Shown here: positions 3,935 through 25,488 of the stretch, piece by piece
How the letters are laid out: each line of letters opens with the position of its first letter
How positions within the stretch are numbered: position 1 is the first letter of the stretch
Source of the DNA: an uncultured Bacilli bacterium
GTDB lineage: Bacteria; Bacillota_I; Bacilli_A; RF39; UBA660
Direction of reading: 5' to 3'
Assembly (NCBI GenBank): GCA_947627635.1
Contig: CANQWT010000001.1
Coordinates: forward strand, 18,325 to 82,324
Length of the DNA: 64,000 nucleotides
The notes under the pieces: generated by a model
The model's database searches: none
Told to the model about the DNA's origin: nothing
What the model saw: the letters and a program-made list of their open reading frames with translations, nothing else
Position numbers and translations under genes: made by a program

Positions 3935-4446
3935 AAGGATTTCAGTTAGAAGGAACAAGACCAACAATGGAACGAGTTAAAGAAAGTCTTTTCGCAATTT
4001 TACAAGAAAATATCCCAAATCGTGTTTGCCTAGATTTATTCGCAGGTAGTGGAAACCTTGGCATAGAAGCATTATCCATGAATGCCCATGAAGTTGTTTT
4101 TGTAGACCAAAAGAAAGAAGCCACTAAAACCATTGAGAAAAATTTAAAACAATTCAACATTGTAGCGCCTATTTATACTCTTGATTATTTAAAAGCCTTA
4201 GACCTTTTTAAACAACAACAAAAAAAGTTTGACATTGTCTTCTTAGACCCACCTTATCAAACTGATTATATTGAAAAAAGCTTAACAAAACTTTTAGAGC
4301 TTGACTTATTAAATCAAGAAGCATTGGTTGTTTGTGAAAGTGATAGCTTAGACAAAATCACTGTACCATTTGAAGCCTACCAAATTGTCAAGGAAAAGAA
4401 ATATGGAGATAAATATATTCGGATTTTGAAAAAAATGGTACAATAA
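3895..4446 (+). CDS. rsmD: 16S rRNA (guanine966-N2)-methyltransferase RsmD
   Basis: LDLFAGSGNLGIEALS SAM motif and the DPPY motif (FLDPPYQ), typical of RsmD/YlbH. Confidence 0.8.
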   Translation: MRIIQGKYKGRKIEGFQLEGTRPTMERVKESLFAILQENIPNRVCLDLFAGSGNLGIEALSMNAHEVVFVDQKKEATKTIEKNLKQFNIVAPIYTLDYLKALDLFKQQQKKFDIVFLDPPYQTDYIEKSLTKLLELDLLNQEALVVCESDSLDKITVPFEAYQIVKEKKYGDKYIRILKKMVQ

Positions 4447-4462
4447 AAGAGAAGGTGGATGT

Positions 4463-4636
4463 ATGAATAATAAGGGTTTTGCCATTTCTACTATTATATA
4501 TGGTCTAATTACTATGGCTAGTTTGGTTTTATTTATATTGGTTGCAAGTCTTTCATTTTCCAAAAAGTCAACTGATGATATGACTGATACAATTGAAAAG
4601 GAATTAAATGCCTGTGTGGCAGCGAAAACTTGTTAA
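4463..4636 (+). CDS. Small (57 aa) membrane protein with prepilin-like N-terminus
   Basis: Not in the ORF track because it is under 60 aa. RBS GAAGGTGGA sits 4 nt upstream. MNNKGFAISTIIYGLITMASLVLFIL resembles a class III (type IV pilin-like) leader, but there is no Glu at +5. Confidence 0.3.
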   Translation: MNNKGFAISTIIYGLITMASLVLFILVASLSFSKKSTDDMTDTIEKELNACVAAKTC

Positions 4637-4756
4637 GTTATTTTAATTTTGTGAAGAAAAGTTTTGACAGAGGCTTACAAATAAGTTATAATGAACGTTA
4701 AGAAAGGAGTGGGAACGAAAAAAATCCCACTCTTTCATTTCTCTTGGAGGTGGAAA

Positions 4757-5008
4757 GTGAAAGAAGAGATTACTCGCATCATTGACCCTGAAATCGAAGA
4801 GTTAGGTTTATGGGTAAGCGATGTTAAAAAAGTTCATCAAGAAGGTGTAATTGCTCTTGAAATTGAACTAGATAGTCAAGGTGTACTTGACCTTGATATC
4901 ATTACAAAAGCAACCGATATTATCAACCCTATTTTAGATAGAAATAATGTCATCGATGAAGAAATAGATGTGGTTGATATTTATGGAAAAAGTAAGGAAG
5001 AGGTGTAA
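4757..5008 (+). CDS. rimP: Ribosome maturation factor RimP, short form (N-terminal domain only)
   Basis: GTG start 5 nt after GGAGGTGG. EEITRIIDPEIEELGLWVSDVKKV...LEIELD matches the RimP N-domain. The stop lies immediately before nusA. The longer ORF from 4691 has no RBS and a non-homologous N-terminus. Confidence 0.6.
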   Translation: MKEEITRIIDPEIEELGLWVSDVKKVHQEGVIALEIELDSQGVLDLDIITKATDIINPILDRNNVIDEEIDVVDIYGKSKEEV

Positions 5009-5010
5009 AC

Positions 5011-6222
5011 ATGGATGGCAAAGAATTTATAAAAGCAGTTGAAAATATTGTCAAAGAGAAAAATATCGATAAAGCCGTTGTCTTTGATGCAATGAAACTT
5101 GCACTATCATCTGCTTATAAGAAAAATACTGGAAACAAAAACAGTAATGTAAAAGTCGTTATTGATGAAGATACTGGAGATATTAAAGTCTATTCTTTCT
5201 TAACCGTTGTGGAAGATGAAAAGATGACGAAAGAAGAATACGAAGACTACTTATTTGAACATTATACAGATGAAGACGATGAGGAAGAAGAAGCTGAAGT
5301 AGAAAAACAAGAGGAAGAAGCAACAGAAGATGAAGCATTAGAAAAACAAGAAGAAAAGATTTCTTTCTTTAATAAAGATACAGAAATCAAACTTTCTGAT
5401 GCTCGTAAAATTGATAAGTCCTTAAATATTGGAGATACCATTGATACAGAAGTTACTCCAAAAGACTTTGGACGTGTCGCAACTTCAACAGCAAAACAAG
5501 TTGTCATTCAAAAAATTCGTGAGGCAGAACGAAATAGTATCATGGACGAATTTGGAGATAAACAAGATGAACTTTTAATTGGAACTGTAGCCTTAGAAGA
5601 TACAGATAACTACTTTATTGACCTTGGAAGATGTAATGGAATTTTACCAAAGAAAGACATTATTCCAGGTGAGAAAATAGAGATGGGTTCACAAATTAAA
5701 GTTTATGTAACTAAAGTTGATAACAATGGACGAAACTTACTCATTCTCTTATCAAGAAGACATTATGGTTTTGTAAAACGCTTATTTGAACTTGAAATTC
5801 CAGAACTTTCTGATGGTAGTGTTCTTCTATATAGTGTCGCAAGAGAAGCAGGAGTTCGTAGTAAAGTTGCTGTATATTCTGAAAACTCTAAAATTGACCC
5901 AATTGGTGCATGTATTGGTGAAAAGGGAAGCAGAATTGCCAACATTATCACAGAACTTCATGGTGAGAAAGTGGATATCATTCGTTATGACAAAGACCCT
6001 GCAGTCTTCATTGAGAATGCTCTTTCTCCAGCGAAGGATTTAACTGTTGCAATTACAGATGCTAAAAAACAAGAAGCATTAGTCATTGCCGATGGAGATA
6101 ATTTCTCACTTGCTATTGGAAAACGTGGATTAAATGCAAGATTAGCTTCTAAATTGACAGGTTATAAAATAGATATTAAAACAAGAGAACAAGCAGAAGA
6201 GTTAGGCATCAATTTAAGATAA
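5011..6222 (+). CDS. nusA: Transcription termination/antitermination factor NusA
   Basis: S1 and two KH domains (GACIGEKGSRIANI, AIGKRGLNARLAS). Sits between rimP and ylxR-infB. Contains an acidic insert DEDDEEEEAEVEKQEEEATEDEALEKQEEK after the N-terminal domain. Confidence 0.9.
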   Translation: MDGKEFIKAVENIVKEKNIDKAVVFDAMKLALSSAYKKNTGNKNSNVKVVIDEDTGDIKVYSFLTVVEDEKMTKEEYEDYLFEHYTDEDDEEEEAEVEKQEEEATEDEALEKQEEKISFFNKDTEIKLSDARKIDKSLNIGDTIDTEVTPKDFGRVATSTAKQVVIQKIREAERNSIMDEFGDKQDELLIGTVALEDTDNYFIDLGRCNGILPKKDIIPGEKIEMGSQIKVYVTKVDNNGRNLLILLSRRHYGFVKRLFELEIPELSDGSVLLYSVAREAGVRSKVAVYSENSKIDPIGACIGEKGSRIANIITELHGEKVDIIRYDKDPAVFIENALSPAKDLTVAITDAKKQEALVIADGDNFSLAIGKRGLNARLASKLTGYKIDIKTREQAEELGINLR

Positions 6223-15505: not shown

Positions 15506-15613
15506 TTTTTCACCTCACTTTTTTGTAAACATATACATAATATCAAAAAGTCACTAAAAAAGCAAATAAAAATAAGGAATTTGTTCAAAATAGAAAAAAG
15601 AAAGAGGGATAAA

Positions 15614-16630
15614 ATGGGAAAAAGAAAACAAATTGCTTTGATGCATACAGATTTAATTGAAGATATTATTTGTAATCAGGATAGAAAAGTTAAAGGGGAG
15701 GAATATTCTTATTCAGGTGGAAAGGTGAAAAGACTTTATTTAAATCAAGAAGATGAAAAAGCTTTATCGAAAAAGAAGGGATGGTATAGTACAATTTTTT
15801 TTGATGAACTGTTGCTTGATGAAAATGCAAATTCTATTCAAGAAGTTTTAGAAAAAGAAATATCTTTTTATATGAAACAATTTGAAATCAAAGAAAATGA
15901 TTTTGGATTAGTCATTGGATTAGGAAATCGAATGAGTACTCCTGATTCTTTAGGACCTAAGGTTATAGAAAATACTACTGTTACAAAGCATTTGTTTGAT
16001 TTAGGATTAAATGTAGAACTCAAGTATCGTCCTTTATCTGTTATATCCCCAGGTGTAATGGCTCAAACTGGAATTGAGACAAAAGAATATATTCTTGCTC
16101 TCATTGAAAAAATTCATCCAACATTTGTAATTGCCATTGATGCTCTTGCTTCAAACTCCTTAGAGAGGGTGATGAAAACCATTCAACTAACTGATACCGG
16201 AATACACCCAGGAAGTGGTATTGGAAATCATCGTAAAGAAATATCTCAAGAGACCATAGGAATTCCTGTTTTAGCAATTGGCGTTCCAACCGTCGTAGAT
16301 GCCGCAACAATTGTACAAAATACGCTTTCCTTTTTAAGTAAGAAAATCTCTTATCAAAAAGAAAACAAAAATAATCCCAAAAACAAGTTCCTAACAGGAC
16401 TTGAAGACGTTTATAAAAATCAAGAAGATACTTTGACAAAACAAGAAAAGCAAAGCCTATTAGGAGAACTTGGTCTTTTGTCTTTGGAAGAACAAACTCA
16501 TCTTTTTGAAGAAGTATTAACCCCTTTAGGTTACAACTTAATGGTAACCCCTACAGATGTTGATGCTTTAATTGAACAACTTTCTAAAATCATCAGTGGT
16601 AGTTTAAATCATGTTCTTCATAAGAGTTAA
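15614..16630 (+). CDS. gpr: Germination protease GPR (spore endopeptidase)
   Basis: Near-identity blocks with B. subtilis Gpr: AIDALASNSLERV..IQLTDTGIHPGSGIGN, GIPVLAIGVPTVVDA, SPLGYNLMVTP. The start at 15614 is preferred because AAGAGGGAT RBS precedes it; the track's TTG at 15581 has none. The rpsT-gpr-spoIIP order is conserved. Confidence 0.85.
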   Translation: MGKRKQIALMHTDLIEDIICNQDRKVKGEEYSYSGGKVKRLYLNQEDEKALSKKKGWYSTIFFDELLLDENANSIQEVLEKEISFYMKQFEIKENDFGLVIGLGNRMSTPDSLGPKVIENTTVTKHLFDLGLNVELKYRPLSVISPGVMAQTGIETKEYILALIEKIHPTFVIAIDALASNSLERVMKTIQLTDTGIHPGSGIGNHRKEISQETIGIPVLAIGVPTVVDAATIVQNTLSFLSKKISYQKENKNNPKNKFLTGLEDVYKNQEDTLTKQEKQSLLGELGLLSLEEQTHLFEEVLTPLGYNLMVTPTDVDALIEQLSKIISGSLNHVLHKS

Positions 16631-16695: not shown

Positions 16696-17664
16696 ATGAA
16701 GAAAAGATTTATCGTAAAAAAGAAAAAGAAAAGAGCTAATAAAAAGATAAAAGTCTTAATTTTGTTATCTCTTTTTCTAGTAGCTTTTTATAGTTCACTT
16801 TGTTTTTGTGCAAGGCTAAAATTCAAAAGTGACCATCAAGAACTTTTAAACATTTTACTTTCTCATAGTAACAGTTTTATTAAAGAGAAAAAGGATAATA
16901 CTTTTTTAGTCAAGGCTATTTCTTATCTATTACAAATTGATGTAAAGCGTCCTAGTACACTTCTATATACGGGTTATACAGGTATTTTTAAAGAACAAGA
17001 AAAAAGTACGCATATTATTTCTAAAAATGTTGAGGAAAAGCAGTCTATTCTTTATAAGGAACCTCGTGTTTATATTTATAATACACATCAAAAAGAGGAA
17101 TATCAGCCGAGTTCTTTTTTAGAATATAGTGTTTCTCCTAATGTGATGCTTTCAAGTTATATTTTAAAAGAGCAACTCGATAAAAGTGGTATTGCAACTA
17201 TTGTTGAAGAAAGAGATATACAAGGAGAGGTTTCACGTCTTGGTAAGAAATATTACTATAGTTATACAGTTAGTCGAAAGTTTATGGAAGAGGCAAAGCT
17301 AAAGTATCCGACCCTTGAATATTTTATTGATGTTCATCGTGATTCTGTGTCTAAAAATTTATCTTATCTTGAAAAAGATGGAAAGGGATATGCAAAAGTT
17401 CTTTTTATCATTGGAAAAGAAAATCCAAACTATCAGGAAAATTATAATTTCACAAAGCAAATCTTTGATTTGATGGAAAGTAAAGTTCCTGGAATTACGA
17501 GGAGTATTTATGAAAAAGCAGGAGAAGGTGTTGATGGAGTTTATAATCAGGATTTTTCACCGAATACGATTTTAGTAGAAATAGGTGGAGAAGAAAATAC
17601 TGTGGATGAAGTCTATAATACAACTCTTGTTTTAGGAGAAGTTCTAAAGGAAGTGATAGGGTGA
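16696..17664 (+). CDS. spoIIP: Stage II sporulation protein P (SpoIIP)
   Basis: Position after gpr. N-terminal TM plus amidase-like domain with YIYNTHQ...EEY and FIDVHRDS motifs. Confidence 0.75.
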   Translation: MKKRFIVKKKKKRANKKIKVLILLSLFLVAFYSSLCFCARLKFKSDHQELLNILLSHSNSFIKEKKDNTFLVKAISYLLQIDVKRPSTLLYTGYTGIFKEQEKSTHIISKNVEEKQSILYKEPRVYIYNTHQKEEYQPSSFLEYSVSPNVMLSSYILKEQLDKSGIATIVEERDIQGEVSRLGKKYYYSYTVSRKFMEEAKLKYPTLEYFIDVHRDSVSKNLSYLEKDGKGYAKVLFIIGKENPNYQENYNFTKQIFDLMESKVPGITRSIYEKAGEGVDGVYNQDFSPNTILVEIGGEENTVDEVYNTTLVLGEVLKEVIG

Positions 17665-18200: not shown

Positions 18201-18404
18201 ATTTATAGAAAAAACGTTCAAAAATCATTGACAAATCATTATTTTTCGCATATATTATTACCAGTAAATGAAAAAGGAAAGCGATTTTATATCCACCTGA
18301 TTGCGAATAGCGATAGGTTAAAGGCCAAAAAAAAGAAATTCAAATGGTTTTTAAGTGGATATTTTCGTGGTATCCACTTTTCATTTGTTTTGGAGGTGTT
18401 TTGT

Positions 18405-18938
18405 ATAGCAAATAACAAAGGGAACAATTTACTAATCAATGACCAAATTAAAGTGCCTGAGGTATTAGTAATTGGTCCAAATGGGGAACAGGTAGGAATT
18501 AAATCAATTGAGGACGCAAGGACACTTGCTTCATATGCAGCCCTTGACCTTGTACTAATTAGTCCGAATGGAAACCCACCAGTTTGTAAAGTAATGGACT
18601 ACAACAAGTATCGTTACGAAAAGAATAAAAAAGAAAAGGAAGCTCTAAAAAGACAAAGAGCTAATCAACAAGAATTAAAAGAATTTCGTCTTTCACCAGT
18701 AATTGATGTTGGAGATTTTGAAACGAAACTTAAAAATGCTTCAAAGTATTTACAAAAAGGAGACAAAGTAAAATTAACCATTCGTTTTAAAGGAAGACAA
18801 ATGGCTCATACTGAGTTAGGACGCGAAGTTTTAGAAAAATTTACTGCTCGTTGTTTAGAGTTCGCTGAAGTACAAGACAAGCCAAAGTTAGATGGTAGAG
18901 TTATGAGCATGCTCTTAGTACCTAAAAAAGAAAAATAG
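18405..18938 (+). CDS. infC: Translation initiation factor IF-3, probable non-AUG (AUA) start
   Basis: Homology to IF-3 begins at NDQIKVPEVLVIGPNGEQVGIKS. GGAGG at 18393-18397 is followed 7 nt later by in-frame ATA at 18405; IF-3 genes classically use AUU/AUA starts. The track ORF from 18228 carries a spurious N-terminal extension. Confidence 0.75.
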   Translation: MANNKGNNLLINDQIKVPEVLVIGPNGEQVGIKSIEDARTLASYAALDLVLISPNGNPPVCKVMDYNKYRYEKNKKEKEALKRQRANQQELKEFRLSPVIDVGDFETKLKNASKYLQKGDKVKLTIRFKGRQMAHTELGREVLEKFTARCLEFAEVQDKPKLDGRVMSMLLVPKKEK

Positions 18939-18951
18939 AAGGAGTGAAATT

Positions 18952-19140
18952 ATGCCAAAGTTAAAGACACACAAAGGTTCAAAAAAAGTATTTAAAGTTA
19001 GAAAAGGCGGTACTATTAAAATGGGACATCCTGGAAGCCGTCACAACATGGGATATAAATCAGCAAAAGCAAATCGTAAAAAGAGAAGCAATGCTTCATT
19101 AAGCAAAGCAGACCAAAATCGTTTAAAAAACATTATTTAA
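18952..19140 (+). CDS. rpmI: 50S ribosomal protein L35
   Basis: MPKLKTHKGSKKVFKVRKGG is the canonical L35. Confidence 0.9.
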   Translation: MPKLKTHKGSKKVFKVRKGGTIKMGHPGSRHNMGYKSAKANRKKRSNASLSKADQNRLKNII

Positions 19141-19160: not shown

Positions 19161-19778
19161 ATGGCAAGAGTTAAAAATAGTGTGACAACAAAAGCACGTC
19201 ATAAAAAAGTATTAAAACAAGCCAAAGGATACTTTGGAAGTAAGCATAGACTTTATAAGTCAGCAAAAGAACAATTGATGCATTCAGGACAATATGCATT
19301 CCGTGACCGTAAACAAAAGAAAAGAGATTTTAGAAAATTATGGATTACACGTATCAATGCAGCATGTCGTGAAGAAGGAATTAGTTATTCAAGATTTATT
19401 GAAGGACTAACAAAAGCAGGAGTTGAAATCAATCGTAAGATGTTATCTGAAATCGCAATTAACGATAAAGAAAGATTTAAAGAATTAGTTCAACTTGCAA
19501 GAGATGGTAAGGCTGGAAAAGTATCACCATCAAAAGTAGAAATCAAAGAAGAAGTTACAATTAAGTCACAAAATAAGAAAGAAGAAGTAGAAAAGAAAAC
19601 AACTACTAAGAAAGAAACTGTAAAAGAAGATGCGAAGGAAGAAAAAAAATCTTCAAAGGAAGATGTTAAAGACTATAGTAAAATGACAGTTCAAGAACTT
19701 CGTGAAGTTGCAAAAGATAAGAATATCAAGGGTGCAAGTACAATGAAAAAAGCTGAACTTTTAGAGGCTTTAAAATAA
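19161..19778 (+). CDS. rplT: 50S ribosomal protein L20 with an ~85-aa C-terminal K/E-rich extension ending in a Rho_N-like motif
   Basis: [26 protein letters not shown] is canonical L20 through ~118 aa. It is followed by a low-complexity KE linker and then [31 protein letters not shown]. Confidence 0.9.
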
Positions 19779-19871
19779 AAAACATATTTGCGGATGGAAC
19801 TCCCTAGTGCTCTAAATAGAGTGGGATTCTTAGAAACAAATAGAAGAATGAACGAAAAGGAGATATAAGAT

Positions 19872-20855
19872 ATGACAGTAGTATCAATGAATTATTTATT
19901 AGAAGCTGGTGTACATTTTGGACACCAAAAAAGAAGATGGAATCCAAAAATGAAGGAATACATCTATACAACAAGAGATGACATTTATATTATCGATTTA
20001 CAAAAAACAGTAAAGAAAATGGAAGAAGCATACGAAGCAATTAAGCAAATTGCTGAAGCAGGTGGAAAGTTCTTATTTGTAGGAACTAAAAAACAAGCTC
20101 AAGAAGCTGCTGAAGAAAATGCTGTACGTACAAATATGTACTTCGTAAACGAACGTTGGTTAGGTGGAACTTTAACAAACTTCAAAACAATTAAATCAAG
20201 AATTCGTAGAATGGAAGAAATCGAGAAAATGGAAGAAGATGGAACTTTTGATTTACTTCCAAAGAAAGAAGTTATTAAAATCCGTAAAGAATATGATAAA
20301 TTAAACAAGAATTTACGTGGAATTCGTGAAATGAAGAAAGCACCACAAGCTATGATTATTGTTGACCCACGTAAAGAAGAAATCGCTATTAAAGAAGCAA
20401 GAATTCTTGGAATTCCAGTATTTGGTATTGTTGATACCAACTGTGACCCTGATATGGTTGATTATGTAATTCCAGGAAATGATGATGCTGTCCGTGCTGT
20501 AAAATTGATGCTTGGTGCACTTACAAATGCAATTGCTGAAGTAAATGGAAATGAAATCATCGATTATGTTACAGAAGAAGATAAAAATAAAGATGCCAAA
20601 GCAAAAGAAGCAGAAACTTCTAAGGTGGAAGTAACAGAAGAGAAAAAGGAAGAACCAAAATCTACTCCTTCTAAAGAAGAGGCCGTAGAAGAAGTTCAAG
20701 AAGAACCTGTTCAAAAGGATGTAACTACTAAGGAAGATAAAAGTACAGATTTAGAAAGTCTTTCTTTACAAGACCTTAAAGCAAAAGCGAAAGAACAAGG
20801 AGTAAAAGGTTACTCTAAAATGAAAAAAGCAGAACTTATTGAAGTATTAAAGTAA
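19872..20855 (+). CDS. rpsB: 30S ribosomal protein S2 with a C-terminal K/E-rich extension ending in a Rho_N-like motif
   Basis: [18 protein letters not shown] is canonical S2. The C-terminus is [31 protein letters not shown]. Confidence 0.9.
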
Positions 20856-20942
20856 TAGGAAGGAGGAGGGCAACCTCTTTTTTCTTGCTAAAATGACAAG
20901 TTCATAATAGAATAGAATTAGAAAATAAGAAAGGTGATAAAT

Positions 20943-21824
20943 ATGTTTAGTGCAAGTGATATTAAAGAGTTAAGAGATAAAACAGGAGCTGGAATGCTTG
21001 ACTGTAAAAAGGCATTAGAAGCAACTGAAGGAGATATGGACAAAGCCATTGACTGGTTACGTGAAAAAGGAATTAGTAAAGCAGCTAAGAAAGAATCACG
21101 TATTGCCGCAGAAGGACTTTGTGAAATCAAGGTTGATGGAAATACTGCGATTATGGTAGAAGTAAATTCTGAGACAGATTTTGTTGCTAAGAATAGTGAA
21201 TTTACTGATTTCGTAGATTATTTAGCTACTAAGATTTTAGAAAACAAAGTATCTACAAACGAAGAAGTATTACAAATTCAAGATGGAAGTGAAACAGTTC
21301 AAGATAAACTTGTTGCTTTGACTGCTAAAATTGGAGAAAAACTATCTTTCCGTCGTTTCGTTCGTGTTGAAAAAGAAGACAATGAATATTTTGGAGCTTA
21401 TACACATATGGGCGGTAAAATTGGAGCTTTAATTGTTCTAGAAAATGGATGTGAAGAAGTTGCGCGTGATATTGCAATGCATACTGCTGCTATGAACCCA
21501 ACTGCAATTAGTCGTGATGCTGTACCACAAGAAATGATAGAACGTGAAAGTACTGTAATTAAAGAACAAGTTATGAATGAAGGAAAACCTGCTGATATTG
21601 CTGAAAAGATGGTAGTAGGTCGTCTCAATAAATTTTATAAAGAAATTTGTCTAGAGGAACAAGAATTTATTAAAGATTCAAGTATGACTGTAGGTACTTT
21701 TGCTAAAAATAATGGAGCTACAATTAAAGCAATGTATCGTTTCCAAGTTGGTGAAGGTATTGAAAAGAAAGAAGAAGACTTTGCCAGTGAAGTCATGAGC
21801 CAAATTAACGGAGCAAATCAGTAA
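20943..21824 (+). CDS. tsf: Elongation factor Ts
   Basis: MFSASDIKELRDKTGAGMLDCKKAL is the canonical EF-Ts N-terminus. AAGGTGA RBS precedes the ATG at 20943; the track's GTG at 20934 is less likely. Confidence 0.9.
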   Translation: MFSASDIKELRDKTGAGMLDCKKALEATEGDMDKAIDWLREKGISKAAKKESRIAAEGLCEIKVDGNTAIMVEVNSETDFVAKNSEFTDFVDYLATKILENKVSTNEEVLQIQDGSETVQDKLVALTAKIGEKLSFRRFVRVEKEDNEYFGAYTHMGGKIGALIVLENGCEEVARDIAMHTAAMNPTAISRDAVPQEMIERESTVIKEQVMNEGKPADIAEKMVVGRLNKFYKEICLEEQEFIKDSSMTVGTFAKNNGATIKAMYRFQVGEGIEKKEEDFASEVMSQINGANQ

Positions 21825-21831
21825 TTTCATT

Positions 21832-22371
21832 ATGAAGAAGTATGTTGTAATCATATTGATTTTCACATTTTTAATGACAACAGGTTGCTCTGTTAAAAAG
21901 GTTGAAGAAGTAACTGATGCTGAAAAGTTTGCTATTGAATATAATATTTCCAAAGAAAATCCGTTTATCTATTTAGAGGATGAGGATATGCTTGAATTTA
22001 TGAAAGAGGGAACAGGTATCATTTATTTTGGATTTCCTTTAGATACCAAGTCACAAGAAGTTATCTCTCTTCTTTATAAAGTAGCTAAAAAACAAAATGT
22101 CAAAAAGATATACTATTATAATCCTAAGAAAATTAAAGAACAAAATAGCAAAACTTATCAAGAATTATTAAAAATTTTGGAAACTCAAGAAGATAATGAA
22201 CTATCAGAATTTTTACTTCCTGAAATTTATGCCTTAGAAAGTGGAAAAATCATCTCTCATAATCATACTTTAGGAAAAGTAGAGGGAAATATTCAAGAGT
22301 ATTTAACCAAAGCAAAAAAAAGAGACTTAGAAAAAGAACTACTTGAACTAGTAGAAATCTATCAAAAGTAA
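21832..22371 (+). CDS. Putative lipoprotein, unknown function
   Basis: Lipobox LMTTGC after a hydrophobic signal sequence. Confidence 0.5.
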   Translation: MKKYVVIILIFTFLMTTGCSVKKVEEVTDAEKFAIEYNISKENPFIYLEDEDMLEFMKEGTGIIYFGFPLDTKSQEVISLLYKVAKKQNVKKIYYYNPKKIKEQNSKTYQELLKILETQEDNELSEFLLPEIYALESGKIISHNHTLGKVEGNIQEYLTKAKKRDLEKELLELVEIYQK

Positions 22372-22437
22372 AGCTTTAAGAGGATAAAATAACGATAGGT
22401 TCATTAGAAAATATAAAATTAAAATAGGAGTTTGGTT

Positions 22438-24024
22438 ATGAGTATATATGAGGAACTAAAACACTTCAGTAAAGATTATATTTATGAACAATATATAAAA
22501 ATTGTAGAAGACCCTAAGTATTATGAAAACATTACGAAAATAAAAATGATAGATGCTATTTGTAAAATTTATAGTAATCCTGATAATATTATTGATATTT
22601 GTACGATAAAGGAATTAAAGTATTTGAAAATGGTTATTGATAATCTTTTTTCCCTTGCTGATGGACTTCAATCTAAAGAGAAGATAGATATTAAATATTT
22701 CAGTCATAAATATGATTGGGAAAGAAAAACTTTACAGAAAAAATTTTTACTAACGTCTGATTTTTATGGTGAAAGTACTATTCCTTTTGAAATAAAAGAT
22801 TCTGTTAAAAAGGCTTTAGAAAAAATCAAGTGGAGTAGTCAAAGAAAAATCAATGAATTAAATGAAATCTTAATAGGTTATTGTAAGATACAAGGTATAG
22901 TTTCTTTAGATGTTTTATGTGAATTTGCATCGAATATAACGGATTTAACTTCTGATGCTATATGTAATCATATATTTGATAATAAACTATTGAATTATTA
23001 TGTATATATTACAATGGTAAATAAGATAAAATCAGAAGAACAAGTTACTGTTGCTATTTTTCGTGAGAACTATGAGTTTGCTAGTACAATAGAAGATAAA
23101 AGAGATTTCATGGGATTAGTTGAAAATCTACAAATAACTGCTCAAACTTGTAAGAGTATATTCTATAATGATTTTGATATTTATAATCCTAAGGTCAAAA
23201 AACTTTTAACAGAAATTAAAAAGTTTCCTTCTTCTTGCGATATAGGACTAGAAGAAATTAGAGAATATGCTTTATTAAGTTGGTATAGAAAACCTTTAGA
23301 AGAGAAGATAAGCAATCTTTCGGAATTAGATGATGCGCACATCACTAAGTTTCTTAAGATATTAAATGAAGCTCTTGATGAAATGCCTTCTGGTGTTTTA
23401 GGTGGATACACACCTAATCAAGTTGGTGACATTAGAGACAGGCAAGTGCAACTGTTTAGGAAAAAAGATGCACAATATAAAAAACAAACAAATGCTCATT
23501 TGTCTATTCAAGATGCCAATCTTTTTAATAAAATCTATTTTGCTTTGTTAGAATATACGAACAAGAAATATAAAATCAATAAGAATTTTAAAATTTATAA
23601 ATGTAAGAAGGAAAATTCTGATGGACTAATGAACGTTATAGAGAAATTTTGGAAAGAAAAAGAAACAATTATTTTAGAATTTTGTAAGGTAAATCCTTAT
23701 AAATTTAGTCCAGAAGAGTTAGAATTTGCAAGCGAATTAAAAAAAGGAATGCGAAGAGAGTTTATTATTGCTAGATATGAACTAGATTACACTGCTTTTA
23801 TGGTAGATGATAGAATTTATATGGTCAAAGGACTACAGGGAAATATTGATAAGCTGATACCTTATGAATGTCTACCTTTTCCTGTGATGACAACAATTAT
23901 TCCATTTAGAGGAAACTTGATATATGATGGAATTATTCAAGGAATCAATAAGAAAATGAGTATTGAATTTGAAGAGATGGTTGAAAGAGAATACGATAAC
24001 TTAATGAAATATTATTATTTCTGA
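22438..24024 (+). CDS. Large hypothetical cytoplasmic protein (~529 aa)
   Basis: Long clean ORF. AGGAG RBS sits 7 nt before the ATG at 22438. No recognisable motif. Confidence 0.5.
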   Translation: MSIYEELKHFSKDYIYEQYIKIVEDPKYYENITKIKMIDAICKIYSNPDNIIDICTIKELKYLKMVIDNLFSLADGLQSKEKIDIKYFSHKYDWERKTLQKKFLLTSDFYGESTIPFEIKDSVKKALEKIKWSSQRKINELNEILIGYCKIQGIVSLDVLCEFASNITDLTSDAICNHIFDNKLLNYYVYITMVNKIKSEEQVTVAIFRENYEFASTIEDKRDFMGLVENLQITAQTCKSIFYNDFDIYNPKVKKLLTEIKKFPSSCDIGLEEIREYALLSWYRKPLEEKISNLSELDDAHITKFLKILNEALDEMPSGVLGGYTPNQVGDIRDRQVQLFRKKDAQYKKQTNAHLSIQDANLFNKIYFALLEYTNKKYKINKNFKIYKCKKENSDGLMNVIEKFWKEKETIILEFCKVNPYKFSPEELEFASELKKGMRREFIIARYELDYTAFMVDDRIYMVKGLQGNIDKLIPYECLPFPVMTTIIPFRGNLIYDGIIQGINKKMSIEFEEMVEREYDNLMKYYYF

Positions 24025-24149: not shown

Positions 24150-24800
24150 ACTTGAATATGATATAATGTGAAGCGTAATGGAAATGGCACACTATTCTAG
24201 TCAATTCCTTTATTACGAAGACGGGATTAAACCACCGTTAAAGAGCACATCTGTGAAACTTCTGGTGTTTGCTTCTTACGCCCAGTTTGGGGTGGATGCT
24301 GGAAGGTATGGATAATGGGTAGTCTATAATGGCATATAGATGAATCCCACTATCTTGGAGACCTAAACTTGTGAGATACCTATACGTGCTAACTGATGGA
24401 TATCTTACGACTTAGGTAGAACCTACTATGTGGCGAAAGTTATGAGTAGCGTAGCTTGTCTTGAGTGGAAAAGTTGGGATTTATGAGCTGACCTAATGAT
24501 TTGGCCAAATCGATTAGATAAACTGCATAATGAAATCTTTTCTGCAAAAAAGAATTAGTAATAAAGATTGGTGAGGAAATCTCCTAGAGTGATGTCGTTT
24601 GGGATTGCAGTGGGTACTAAGTGGTGATCAAGCCATACTTTAAGTATTCGACTTTCGTAAGGGGGAACCGCAGAATTGGTAACGATTCTGTAAAGAAGAG
24701 GGAAATCCTGCTTGACCTAAGGCCCAAAGTTTACCAAAGGATAGCCAACCATGATATTGAAATTAAAGTAACTTCGGTTGCTTTTTTTGTTTTTGTAAAT
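24150..24800 (+). ncRNA. Candidate large structured ncRNA (OLE-like?)
   Basis: About 650 nt with no credible ORF and clearly elevated GC compared with flanks (GGGGTGGATGCTGGAAGG..., GGGGGAACCGCAGAATTGG...). Immediately upstream, on the same strand, of a ~21 kDa 4-TM protein with a DxxxD motif. This is the arrangement described for OLE RNA and oapA. Confidence 0.4.
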
Positions 24801-24882
24801 GCATTATTTTATGGCATCAAAAGTCAAAAGCAAATTTACTTTTTCAAAGACTTTCGTTATAATAGAAAACATGAGGTGTCTT

Positions 24883-25488
24883 ATGAACAGAGAAGAAAGA
24901 AGTAAAATTAAAAGTGAGTTAAGAAATTTAGAAGTACAAACTAGAAGAAAAGAGAAGAAAAAGAAAAGTTTAGTAGACTGGAAATGGATAGGAACTATAT
25001 TTTTTGTAGCTTTTGTTCTATCAATGTCTCTTTCATTTGTCTCTGAAACAACCATCAAAGAAGCAAGCCTTCCTATTAGTATTTTGATTACGGTCTTCTT
25101 TATTTGCTTAGGAATTTTATTTGATATTATTGGAGTTTCAGTAACAGCAAGTGATGAAGCTATTTTTCATTCAATGAGTGCGAGAAAAGTAAGAGGAGCA
25201 AAAGTTGCTGTCACATTTAAGAAAAATGCGGATAAAGTATCAAGTTTTTGTTGTGATGTCATTGGTGATATTTGTGGAATTATTTCTGGTGCTTCAGGTG
25301 TTACCATTACAGCACTTTTAACTCAAACTTTTGATTTCCAACTTCTTCCAACAACTTTAGTAGTGACAGGAATGATTTCCGCCCTAACTATTGGTGGAAA
25401 AGCTTTAGGAAAGAGTTTTGCTATCAACAAAAGTAATATTATTCTATATGAGTTTGCAAAAGTGATATCCATAGTTTATAAAGGATAA
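24883..25488 (+). CDS. Small polytopic membrane protein with DxxxD motif (OapA-like candidate)
   Basis: GAGGTG RBS 6 nt before the ATG at 24883. About 201 aa with four predicted TM segments and a conserved-looking CCDVIGDICG (DxxxD). The track ORF from 24799 runs back into the noncoding block. Confidence 0.4.
   Translation: MNREERSKIKSELRNLEVQTRRKEKKKKSLVDWKWIGTIFFVAFVLSMSLSFVSETTIKEASLPISILITVFFICLGILFDIIGVSVTASDEAIFHSMSARKVRGAKVAVTFKKNADKVSSFCCDVIGDICGIISGASGVTITALLTQTFDFQLLPTTLVVTGMISALTIGGKALGKSFAINKSNIILYEFAKVISIVYKG

Follow-up and report, generated by a model that had tools for sequence, protein, structure and literature searches.

Extensions of ribosomal proteins that are specific to particular lineages are well known, and almost all of them are short peptides that pack onto rRNA. 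SAP domains (PF02037), found in Ku70, Tho1, FAN1, PIAS and SAF-A, bind DNA or RNA in eukaryotes. The helix bundle at the N-terminus of Rho (PF07498; PDB 1a8v and 7oqh) has a positive charge and aids in the binding of RNA (bioRxiv 10.1101/2024.06.17.599428). The chloroplast protein RHON1 of Arabidopsis, a partner of RNase E, has a Rho-N motif of about 40 amino acids at its extreme C-terminus, after a highly charged stretch, and this motif alone binds RNA with low specificity, including 16S and 23S fragments (PMC3458557). On the ribosome itself, bS1 docks on uS2 and catches mRNA with its flexible arm (PMC10931766). In addition, NCBIfam lists a '50S ribosomal protein L20/unknown domain fusion protein' (NF011109, PRK14537). 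Here, we analyzed a 64,000-nt stretch of DNA from an uncultured Bacilli bacterium (assembly GCA_947627635.1, contig CANQWT010000001.1, positions 18,325 to 82,324), called the window below, in which the neighbouring genes rplT and rpsB code for bL20 and uS2 (L20 and S2) that both end with a small C-terminal module. This module, referred to as the tag, is separated from each ribosomal core by a long linker.

The open reading frames (ORFs) of rplT and rpsB encode 205 and 327 amino acids, respectively. The L20 core ends near residue 113-115 according to the Pfam and TIGR models, and the S2 core near residue 224-228. Both proteins passed the cut-offs of the respective equivalog models (Table 1). 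The K/E-rich tails that follow are as described in the original prediction, which was made from the letters of the DNA, and the two peptides quoted in it are the true C-termini. A match to the Rho_N model (PF07498, gathering cut-off 24.9 bits) had been set beforehand as the test of that prediction, and both proteins scored above the cut-off: residues 173-204 of L20 with 36.2 bits (E 6e-9) and residues 293-324 of S2 with 35.7 bits (E 8.5e-9). The claim that the same module is attached to one protein of each ribosomal subunit was confirmed as well. The two motifs had been called nearly the same. They do belong to one family, and they are not near-copies, being identical at 16 of 33 positions (48%) in protein and at 57% in DNA.

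To place the tag among its relatives, the scores of other families of similar shape were compared. With SAP (cut-off 23.9 bits), both window tags were below the cut-off (18.8 bits for L20 and 13.7 bits for S2). With HeH/LEM (PF12949, cut-off 28.9 bits), the L20 tag scored 21.2 bits, also below the cut-off, and there was no match in the S2 tag. In the case of orthologous L20 tags from related loci, two exceeded the SAP cut-off (L013 with 35.4 bits and L014 with 30.5 bits), and the L014 tag had a Rho_N score of 18.4 bits, under the cut-off of that family. The SAP score was higher than the Rho_N score in orthologous tags with a loop shorter by one residue ('...IATTGMKKADII...'). The Pfam boundary between Rho_N and SAP cuts through one group of orthologues. 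Because orthologous tags flip to SAP, we regard the tag as a module of the HeH/SAP superfamily rather than a Rho-specific one, and 'Rho_N' is the nearest Pfam label, which carries no information on origin. The domain call of the prediction is correct, and its emphasis on Rho and RNA is too narrow, given the SAP scores of the orthologues and the SAP domains among the structural neighbours.

The best matches of the tag among sequences of solved structures were the N-terminus of Mycobacterium tuberculosis Rho (7oqh, E 4e-4) and the SAP domain of Ku70 (1jjr, E 5e-4). The Rho helix bundle was also the best match above a Pfam cut-off and the best match in fold, and it shares with the tag the helix-extended-helix shape and the positive charge. 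In Rho, however, the module is N-terminal and rigidly fused to an OB-fold RNA-binding domain and an ATPase, whereas the ribosomal tags are C-terminal and stand alone on a flexible linker. A Pfam search found neither the Rho_RNA_bind nor the ATPase domain in the tagged L20 and S2, and the module is C-terminal, so these are not Rho proteins; there is no indication that the tag was derived from Rho. The SAP domains have the same fold, but their context is chromatin, while that of the tags is bacterial and ribosomal. RHON1 is the closest functional analogue. It differs in not being ribosomal and in its acidic linker, and its comparison with the tags covered the motif. As a class, the Rho_N/SAP module is very common and promiscuous. 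At E <= 1e-3, a profile of the tag matched representatives of 5,992 clusters, many of them multi-copy, and a wide range of partners, kinases, HMG boxes and L7Ae-family proteins among them, was found in the 115 top matches that were scanned. This list is dominated by multi-copy Rho_N/SAP proteins from varied organisms and yields no count of tagged ribosomal proteins.

The fold of the tag was modeled with AlphaFold2. The model of the L20 tag (predicted local distance difference test, pLDDT, 84) consists of a helix, an extended segment, and a second helix, with the helices at 11-20 and 31-38. In the full-length model of S2, the tag had a pLDDT of 80-91 and helices at 299-308 and 319-326; this was a single-sequence run with a poor core (mean pLDDT 52), and the tail alone was used. 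A Foldseek search with the tag model gave the Rho N-terminus (1a8v_B) as the top match, with a TM score of 0.75 and a root-mean-square deviation of 1.7 Å over 35 columns. It was followed by the SAP domains of Tho1 and FAN1 at 0.8-1.6 Å, of which the FAN1 matches (0.8-1.0 Å) are in complexes with DNA. Conserved lysines are located at the start of the second helix of the tag.

The linkers, unlike the conserved tag, differ among the homologues both in length and in sequence. In the relatives, the L20 linker has a median length of 38 aa (range 18-58) and the S2 linker of 56 aa (range 40-99). Both linkers of the window are rich in K, E, V and T, and both are probably disordered. For S2, this is the prediction of the AlphaFold2 model, in which residues 247-278 and 280-290 had a pLDDT below 50 and residues 231-246 were of low confidence. 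Slippage-driven expansion of the linkers was considered and rejected, since no tandem repeats were found in the linker DNA. The first part of the L20 linker, with the pattern G-K-x-G-K ... E-V-T-I/V, is kept in close relatives, and the rest is variable. In the alignment of L20 proteins (A2), G116, G119, K120, E131 and V132 are invariant, and the next conserved column is D171. Apart from the tag, this segment might thus form a small element of its own that is structured or contacts the ribosome.

The distribution of the tag was determined in homologues clustered at 90% identity. Rho_N was present in 120 of the 120 top S2 clusters and in 119 of the 120 top L20 clusters, the remaining one (P0043) being labelled SAP only. 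We also examined the 80 best L20 loci, taken from genomes representing one species each. These are metagenome-assembled genomes (MAGs) of uncultured gut bacteria from rabbit, goat, deer, chicken and human, labelled as Bacilli, Tenericutes, Erysipelotrichaceae, Mycoplasma or Acholeplasmataceae; two of the contigs are about 1.2 Mb long. An L20 extension of 53-93 aa was found in all 80 loci, with the tag at its end in 75. Since the ORFs run through without interruption and are kept in hundreds of clusters, the tail is translated. In about 40 of the 80 loci, rpsB and tsf follow rplT, as they do in the window, and each complete S2 there is tagged. Tagged S2 was also found without an upstream rplT (18 loci with enough flank), and tagged L20 without a downstream rpsB (18 loci). 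Thus, the double tagging is no by-product of gene adjacency. The comparison of these proteins indicates that the L20/S2 tag is a conserved architecture and not a one-off.

The tag subtype described here was found on ribosomal proteins only. A tag-seeded scan of metagenomes revealed 91 tag-bearing ORFs in 80 loci, and all 91 coded for ribosomal proteins: 52 S2, three S2 fragments located directly upstream of tsf, 35 L20, and one bL21. The original prediction had raised the number of tagged proteins in the proteome. Two were found in the window, where all frames of the 64 kb were searched with a profile of the L20 and S2 tags and no further copy appeared, and only S2, L20 and L21 carry the tag across about 1 Mb of related loci. 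Several entries that seemed to be other proteins with a tag were set aside. A membrane-anchored tag protein, P0238, made up of a membrane helix, a linker and the tag, comes from a 647-bp contig with 1.4x coverage and lies directly upstream of an rpsB start identical to that of the window; it is probably an assembly chimera of the rplT 3' end. Another of the same make-up, P0258, was rejected as evidence, as it occurs on one short contig of low coverage only (877 bp). A short single-tag 'protein', P0221, is the mis-called S2 tail of L002, and we suspect that further short entries of this kind are mis-called S2 or L20 tails likewise. Over-long L20 and S2 entries were also noted (P0001, P0010, P0273 and P0274; 239-524 aa). 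They have internal core duplications, seen directly in P0001 and P0010, and look like assembly artefacts.

The single bL21 match from the metagenomes (L132, 614-1090) led us to a second system. In cultured marine Flavobacteriaceae, 120 of the 120 top clusters (P0402-P0521) contain bL21 followed by a K/E linker and a Rho_N-type tag; the genera include Zunongwangia, Christiangramia/Gramella, Leeuwenhoekiella, Salegentibacter, Mesonia and Salinimicrobium. On the 50S subunit, bL21 adjoins bL20. Judging from these sequences, tagged bL21 is the standard form of the protein in this group and an independent recurrence of the arrangement in another phylum. In the passages located by search terms in the paper on the ribosome structure of Flavobacterium johnsoniae, an extension of bL21 is not mentioned (PMC7797042). 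As the flavobacterial carriers are cultured, the function of the tag is open to direct testing there. The tag had been called a lineage-specific innovation. This holds in so far as a large clade of gut Bacilli/Tenericutes-like MAGs carries it on L20 and S2, and it fails as to uniqueness, as marine Flavobacteriaceae carry the module on bL21. The suggested link to spore dormancy is unsupported and was rejected. The window organism is probably a spore-former, but the carriers include an Acholeplasmataceae-labelled MAG (L076) and Flavobacteriaceae, and neither group is known to form spores.

Comparison of the two tags within and between genomes revealed their concerted evolution. The mean identity of L20 and S2 tags was 0.685 within a genome and 0.58 between genomes (permutation p < 1e-4), and the partner from the same genome was the best match anywhere for 14 of 72 tags. 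In L007, 101 of 105 nucleotides and 31 of 34 codons of the tag are identical between rplT and rpsB, and in L013, 29 of 34 codons. The within-genome identity sets in at the tag or just upstream of it and ends at the stop codon, and the flanks are unrelated. As a side observation, the identity of the two genes over their last 105-190 nt reaches 96% within a genome, and it is sharply bounded by the tag start and the stop codon. The two 3' ends form direct repeats about 1 kb apart, which flank the essential rpsB core. These patterns fit repeated short gene-conversion tracts that would homogenise the L20 and S2 tags of a genome.

To follow the history of these events, a neighbour-joining tree was built from the cores of IF3, L20, S2 and EF-Ts. 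The near-identical pairs (L007, L001, L026, L029, the L034-L018 clade, L015 and L024) are scattered on it among lineages with divergent pairs; for example, the tag pair of L024 has an identity of 0.89, and those of its sisters L014 and L019 of 0.43-0.46. This pattern implies at least six independent homogenisations. These conclusions rest on identity values and sequences, and not on the tag-type labels A and B, which are imprecise. In five loci, L20 has no tag (L035, L037, L040, L051 and L075). The first four stand at three separate places on the core tree, and L075, a locus without S2, is not on it. On this sequence comparison, the L20 tag was lost at least four times, with L075 counted. The untagged L20 proteins end with K/A/T/P-rich repeats (AKKxxTKK-like) of net charge +9 to +15, one of which gave a weak match (E 0.0076) to the model of a histone H1-like DNA-binding protein, whereas the window proteins have a folded module in place of such Lys/Ala-rich, histone-H1-like tails. 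In L035, L037, L040 and L051, S2 keeps its tag. The L20 and S2 tags are thus interchangeable, and the tag can be replaced by a basic tail. With the 3' ends of two essential genes repeatedly converting each other, the system offers a small but clear case of a protein module in concerted evolution.

Part of this was already on record. The L20 fusion is catalogued as NF011109 with the domain unnamed, and the domain pairs are present in precomputed Pfam annotations. NF011109 aligned with the whole of the window L20 (aa 1-205, matched to positions 1-224 of 232 of the model) at 173.2 bits, below the curated cut-off of 187; relatives scored just below it (L064 184.4, L076 182.1 and L013 180.9). Going by the alignment, the window L20 has the same architecture as this family, and by the curated threshold it is not a member. 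The C-terminal part of the model also aligned with the S2 tail (aa 221-327) and with the flavobacterial L21 tail. The model names no function, and S2 and L21 are outside its coverage. In our literature search, we found no description or study of Rho_N/SAP-tagged ribosomal proteins. New here are the recurrent homogenisation of the L20 and S2 tags within genomes and the losses of the tag, each of which left a strongly basic tail.

Identity of the tag with the 'sunset domain' of two other NCBIfam models was rejected. The 'sunset domain variant' of L20 (NF051450) reached 142.8 bits at a cut-off of 375, with positions 1-154 of 219 aligned, and that of S2 (NF051451) reached 282.9 bits at a cut-off of 710, with positions 1-226 of 382 aligned. 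In both cases, the match covers the core only, and the models' C-terminal domain is a different one. A literature search for the term 'sunset domain' found nothing, and we have seen it as an NCBIfam model name only. The names alone hint that another lineage decorates the same L20/S2 pair with a different shared C-terminal domain.

The best explanation of the data, which we favour tentatively, is that the tag tethers nucleic acid flexibly and with low specificity at the surface of the ribosome. The C-termini of bL20 and uS2 face solvent in known ribosome structures. Linkers of about 20-100 residues would hang from them, each ending with a small folded helix-extended-helix module of the SAP/LEM/Rho_N superfamily that would bind nucleic acid with low sequence specificity. 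The precedents of RHON1, the Rho helix bundle and the SAP-DNA complexes point to such binding. Candidate ligands are RNA (mRNA, or rRNA during assembly) and the AT-rich DNA of the nucleoid, and the tags may hold ribosomes or their subunits near transcripts or the chromosome. Because the cells repeatedly tolerate the overwriting of one tag by the other, both tags apparently serve the same ligand. The uS2 tag would resemble the RNA-binding arm of bS1, which is also flexibly connected and emanates from the uS2 region of 30S (PMC10931766). There is no homology between the two, as bS1 consists of S1/OB domains. The bS1-like reading leaves the tags of bL20 and bL21 unexplained, so it is safer to speak of a more general tether, whether to transcripts, to assembling rRNA or to the nucleoid.

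Several points weigh against this explanation. The Foldseek E-values were non-significant, the model being only 39 aa long. The charge of the tag, +2, is only modest, and the S2 linker of the window is acidic (-9), which would oppose nucleic-acid binding. As to gene conversion, codon identity at identical residues (0.74 within and 0.64 between genomes) backs it only moderately in these sequences, codon bias being strong, and the tag pair of the window itself shows no recent conversion event. DNA is as plausible a ligand as RNA, because the neighbours include the SAP domains of Ku70, Tho1 and FAN1, and the FAN1 matches are DNA complexes; the present data do not separate the two. Finally, SAP-like modules are also able to mediate protein contacts.

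The last point leads to the strongest of the other explanations, which we nevertheless consider unlikely, namely that the tag is a protein-protein adaptor. It would bind a partner shared by both subunits (e.g., RNA polymerase or NusA, a helicase or RNase, or a factor of hibernation) or make ribosome-ribosome contacts in polysomes or 100S dimers. In favour of an adaptor, uS2 is situated where the two 30S subunits meet in the Staphylococcus aureus 100S dimer and at a reported docking site of RNA polymerase (PMC5620080), apart from being the bS1 dock (PMC10931766). The concerted evolution of the tags would equally fit co-evolution with a single protein partner, and the tags are only mildly basic. 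However, bL20 and bL21 lie far from these sites. The characterised relatives that we found (Rho N-terminus, Ku70, Tho1 and FAN1 SAP, and RHON1) are all nucleic-acid binders, and the repeated swap of the L20 tag for a low-complexity, highly basic tail is hard to square with a specific protein interface.

Somewhat less probable again is docking of the tag in cis, on its own ribosome, as an rRNA-contacting extension that would, for example, stabilise or compensate rRNA features in small AT-rich genomes. As bL21 is the neighbour of bL20, a flavobacterial L21 tag would reach the region of the L20 tag. Lineage-specific extensions that pack onto rRNA are common, as exemplified by the C-terminal helix of bS6 in Bacteroidetes (PMC7797042), and the ability of the RHON1 motif to bind rRNA fragments (PMC3458557) would suit such a role. 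A fixed geometry is nevertheless difficult to reconcile with linkers that are unconserved, vary about three-fold in length in both proteins and, in S2, are predicted to be disordered. The mutual overwriting of the L20 and S2 tags would also be unexpected if they recognised separate sites on 23S and 16S rRNA.

It is improbable that the tails are largely neutral baggage with little or no selected function, composed of the low-complexity K/E expansion typical of AT-rich genomes (G+C here is 27-35%) and of a very promiscuous module copied locally between genes whose adjacency in the window would ease it, with L20 tags lost in some lineages. Against this stands the retention of the tag in hundreds of clusters at 90% identity and in 75 of 80 loci at species level, with a conservation far above that of the linker. 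The tag is also there with or without adjacency of rplT and rpsB, is seen in this subtype on ribosomal proteins only, and arose on bL21 of another phylum by an independent acquisition.

The tether explanation may be extended further. In this form, which is possible but doubtful, the tethered SAP/Rho_N module on the solvent side of uS2, bL20 and bL21 would be an unrecognised class of ribosomal appendage that couples ribosomes to nascent transcripts or the nucleoid; uS2 would have a built-in mRNA-capture arm of the bS1 type, and the tags would be kept alike in function by gene conversion. Instead of a short peptide packed onto rRNA, both subunits carry a module that folds by itself and belongs to a nucleic-acid-binding family, on long linkers predicted to be flexible. 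A large clade of uncultured gut bacteria has conserved this design, and another phylum has reinvented it on a 50S protein next to bL20. If the tags do tether ribosomes to mRNA, nascent rRNA or DNA, this would bear on how small-genome bacteria organise transcription-translation coupling, on the recruitment of mRNA where bS1 is weak or absent, and on the positioning of ribosomes in the cell.

Table 1. Coordinates of the tagged genes and of other features. Positions are those of the window unless a locus is named, in which case they are positions within that locus.
Feature	Position	Strand	Remarks
rplT ORF	19161..19778	+	205 aa
rplT, canonical bL20 core	19161..19505	+	aa 1-115; PF00453 161 bits (aa 3-109); TIGR01032 (bL20 equivalog) 169.7 bits (aa 1-113), cut-off 65.65
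L20 linker	19506..19670	+	aa 116-170; 55 aa; net charge +4
Segment of L20 linker kept in close relatives	19506..19562	+	aa 116-134
L20 C-terminal HeH/SAP-type tag	19671..19775	+	aa 171-205; net charge +2
rpsB ORF	19872..20855	+	327 aa
rpsB, canonical uS2 core	19872..20555	+	aa 1-228; PF00318 333.6 bits (aa 9-223); TIGR01011 (uS2 equivalog) 339 bits (aa 3-224), cut-off 76.3
S2 linker, E/K/V/T-rich	20556..20747	+	aa 229-292; 64 aa; net charge -9; predicted disordered
S2 C-terminal HeH/SAP-type tag	20748..20852	+	aa 293-327; net charge +2
infC and rpmI, 5' of rplT	18228..19140	+	ORF translations; mechanical ORF start 18228 probably upstream of the true infC start
tsf (EF-Ts), 3' of rpsB	20934..21824	+	ORF translation; without tag
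Near-identical 3' ends, L007	rplT 3986-4564; rpsB 4642-5577		
Near-identical 3' ends, L013	rplT 3998-4591; rpsB 4690-5649		
Near-identical 3' ends, also L004, L009, L024, L029			
rplT 3' ends without tag, L035, L037, L040, L051, L075	near 4350-4620		
Gpr germination protease	15581..16630	+	Peptidase_A25, 324.5 bits
SpoIIP	16696..17664	+	176.8 bits
ORF between tsf and OLE RNA	21832..22371	+	179 aa; lipoprotein-like N-terminus
ORF between tsf and OLE RNA	22432..24024	+	530 aa
OLE RNA, full-length	24168..24764	+	RF01071; 354.5 bits, gathering score 50
ORF directly 3' of OLE RNA	24799..25488		229 aa

The gene order of the window is infC-rpmI-rplT-rpsB-tsf, which is also found in the related loci mentioned above, about 40 of 80. 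No site resembling an intrinsic terminator was seen between rplT and rpsB. Just upstream of the infC operon are the genes of the germination protease Gpr and of SpoIIP. It is from these two that the window organism is probably a spore-former, while related MAGs are labelled Tenericutes or Mycoplasma and the two long related contigs measure only about 1.2 Mb.

Downstream of tsf, the window contains a full-length OLE (Ornate Large Extremophilic) RNA, the sole Rfam family that reached its gathering threshold in the window. Two ORFs lie between tsf and this RNA, and neither had a Pfam match at E <= 0.001. The ORF directly 3' of the OLE RNA gave a weak, sub-threshold match to a membrane-transporter-like Pfam family, and its product could be a candidate OLE-associated membrane protein.

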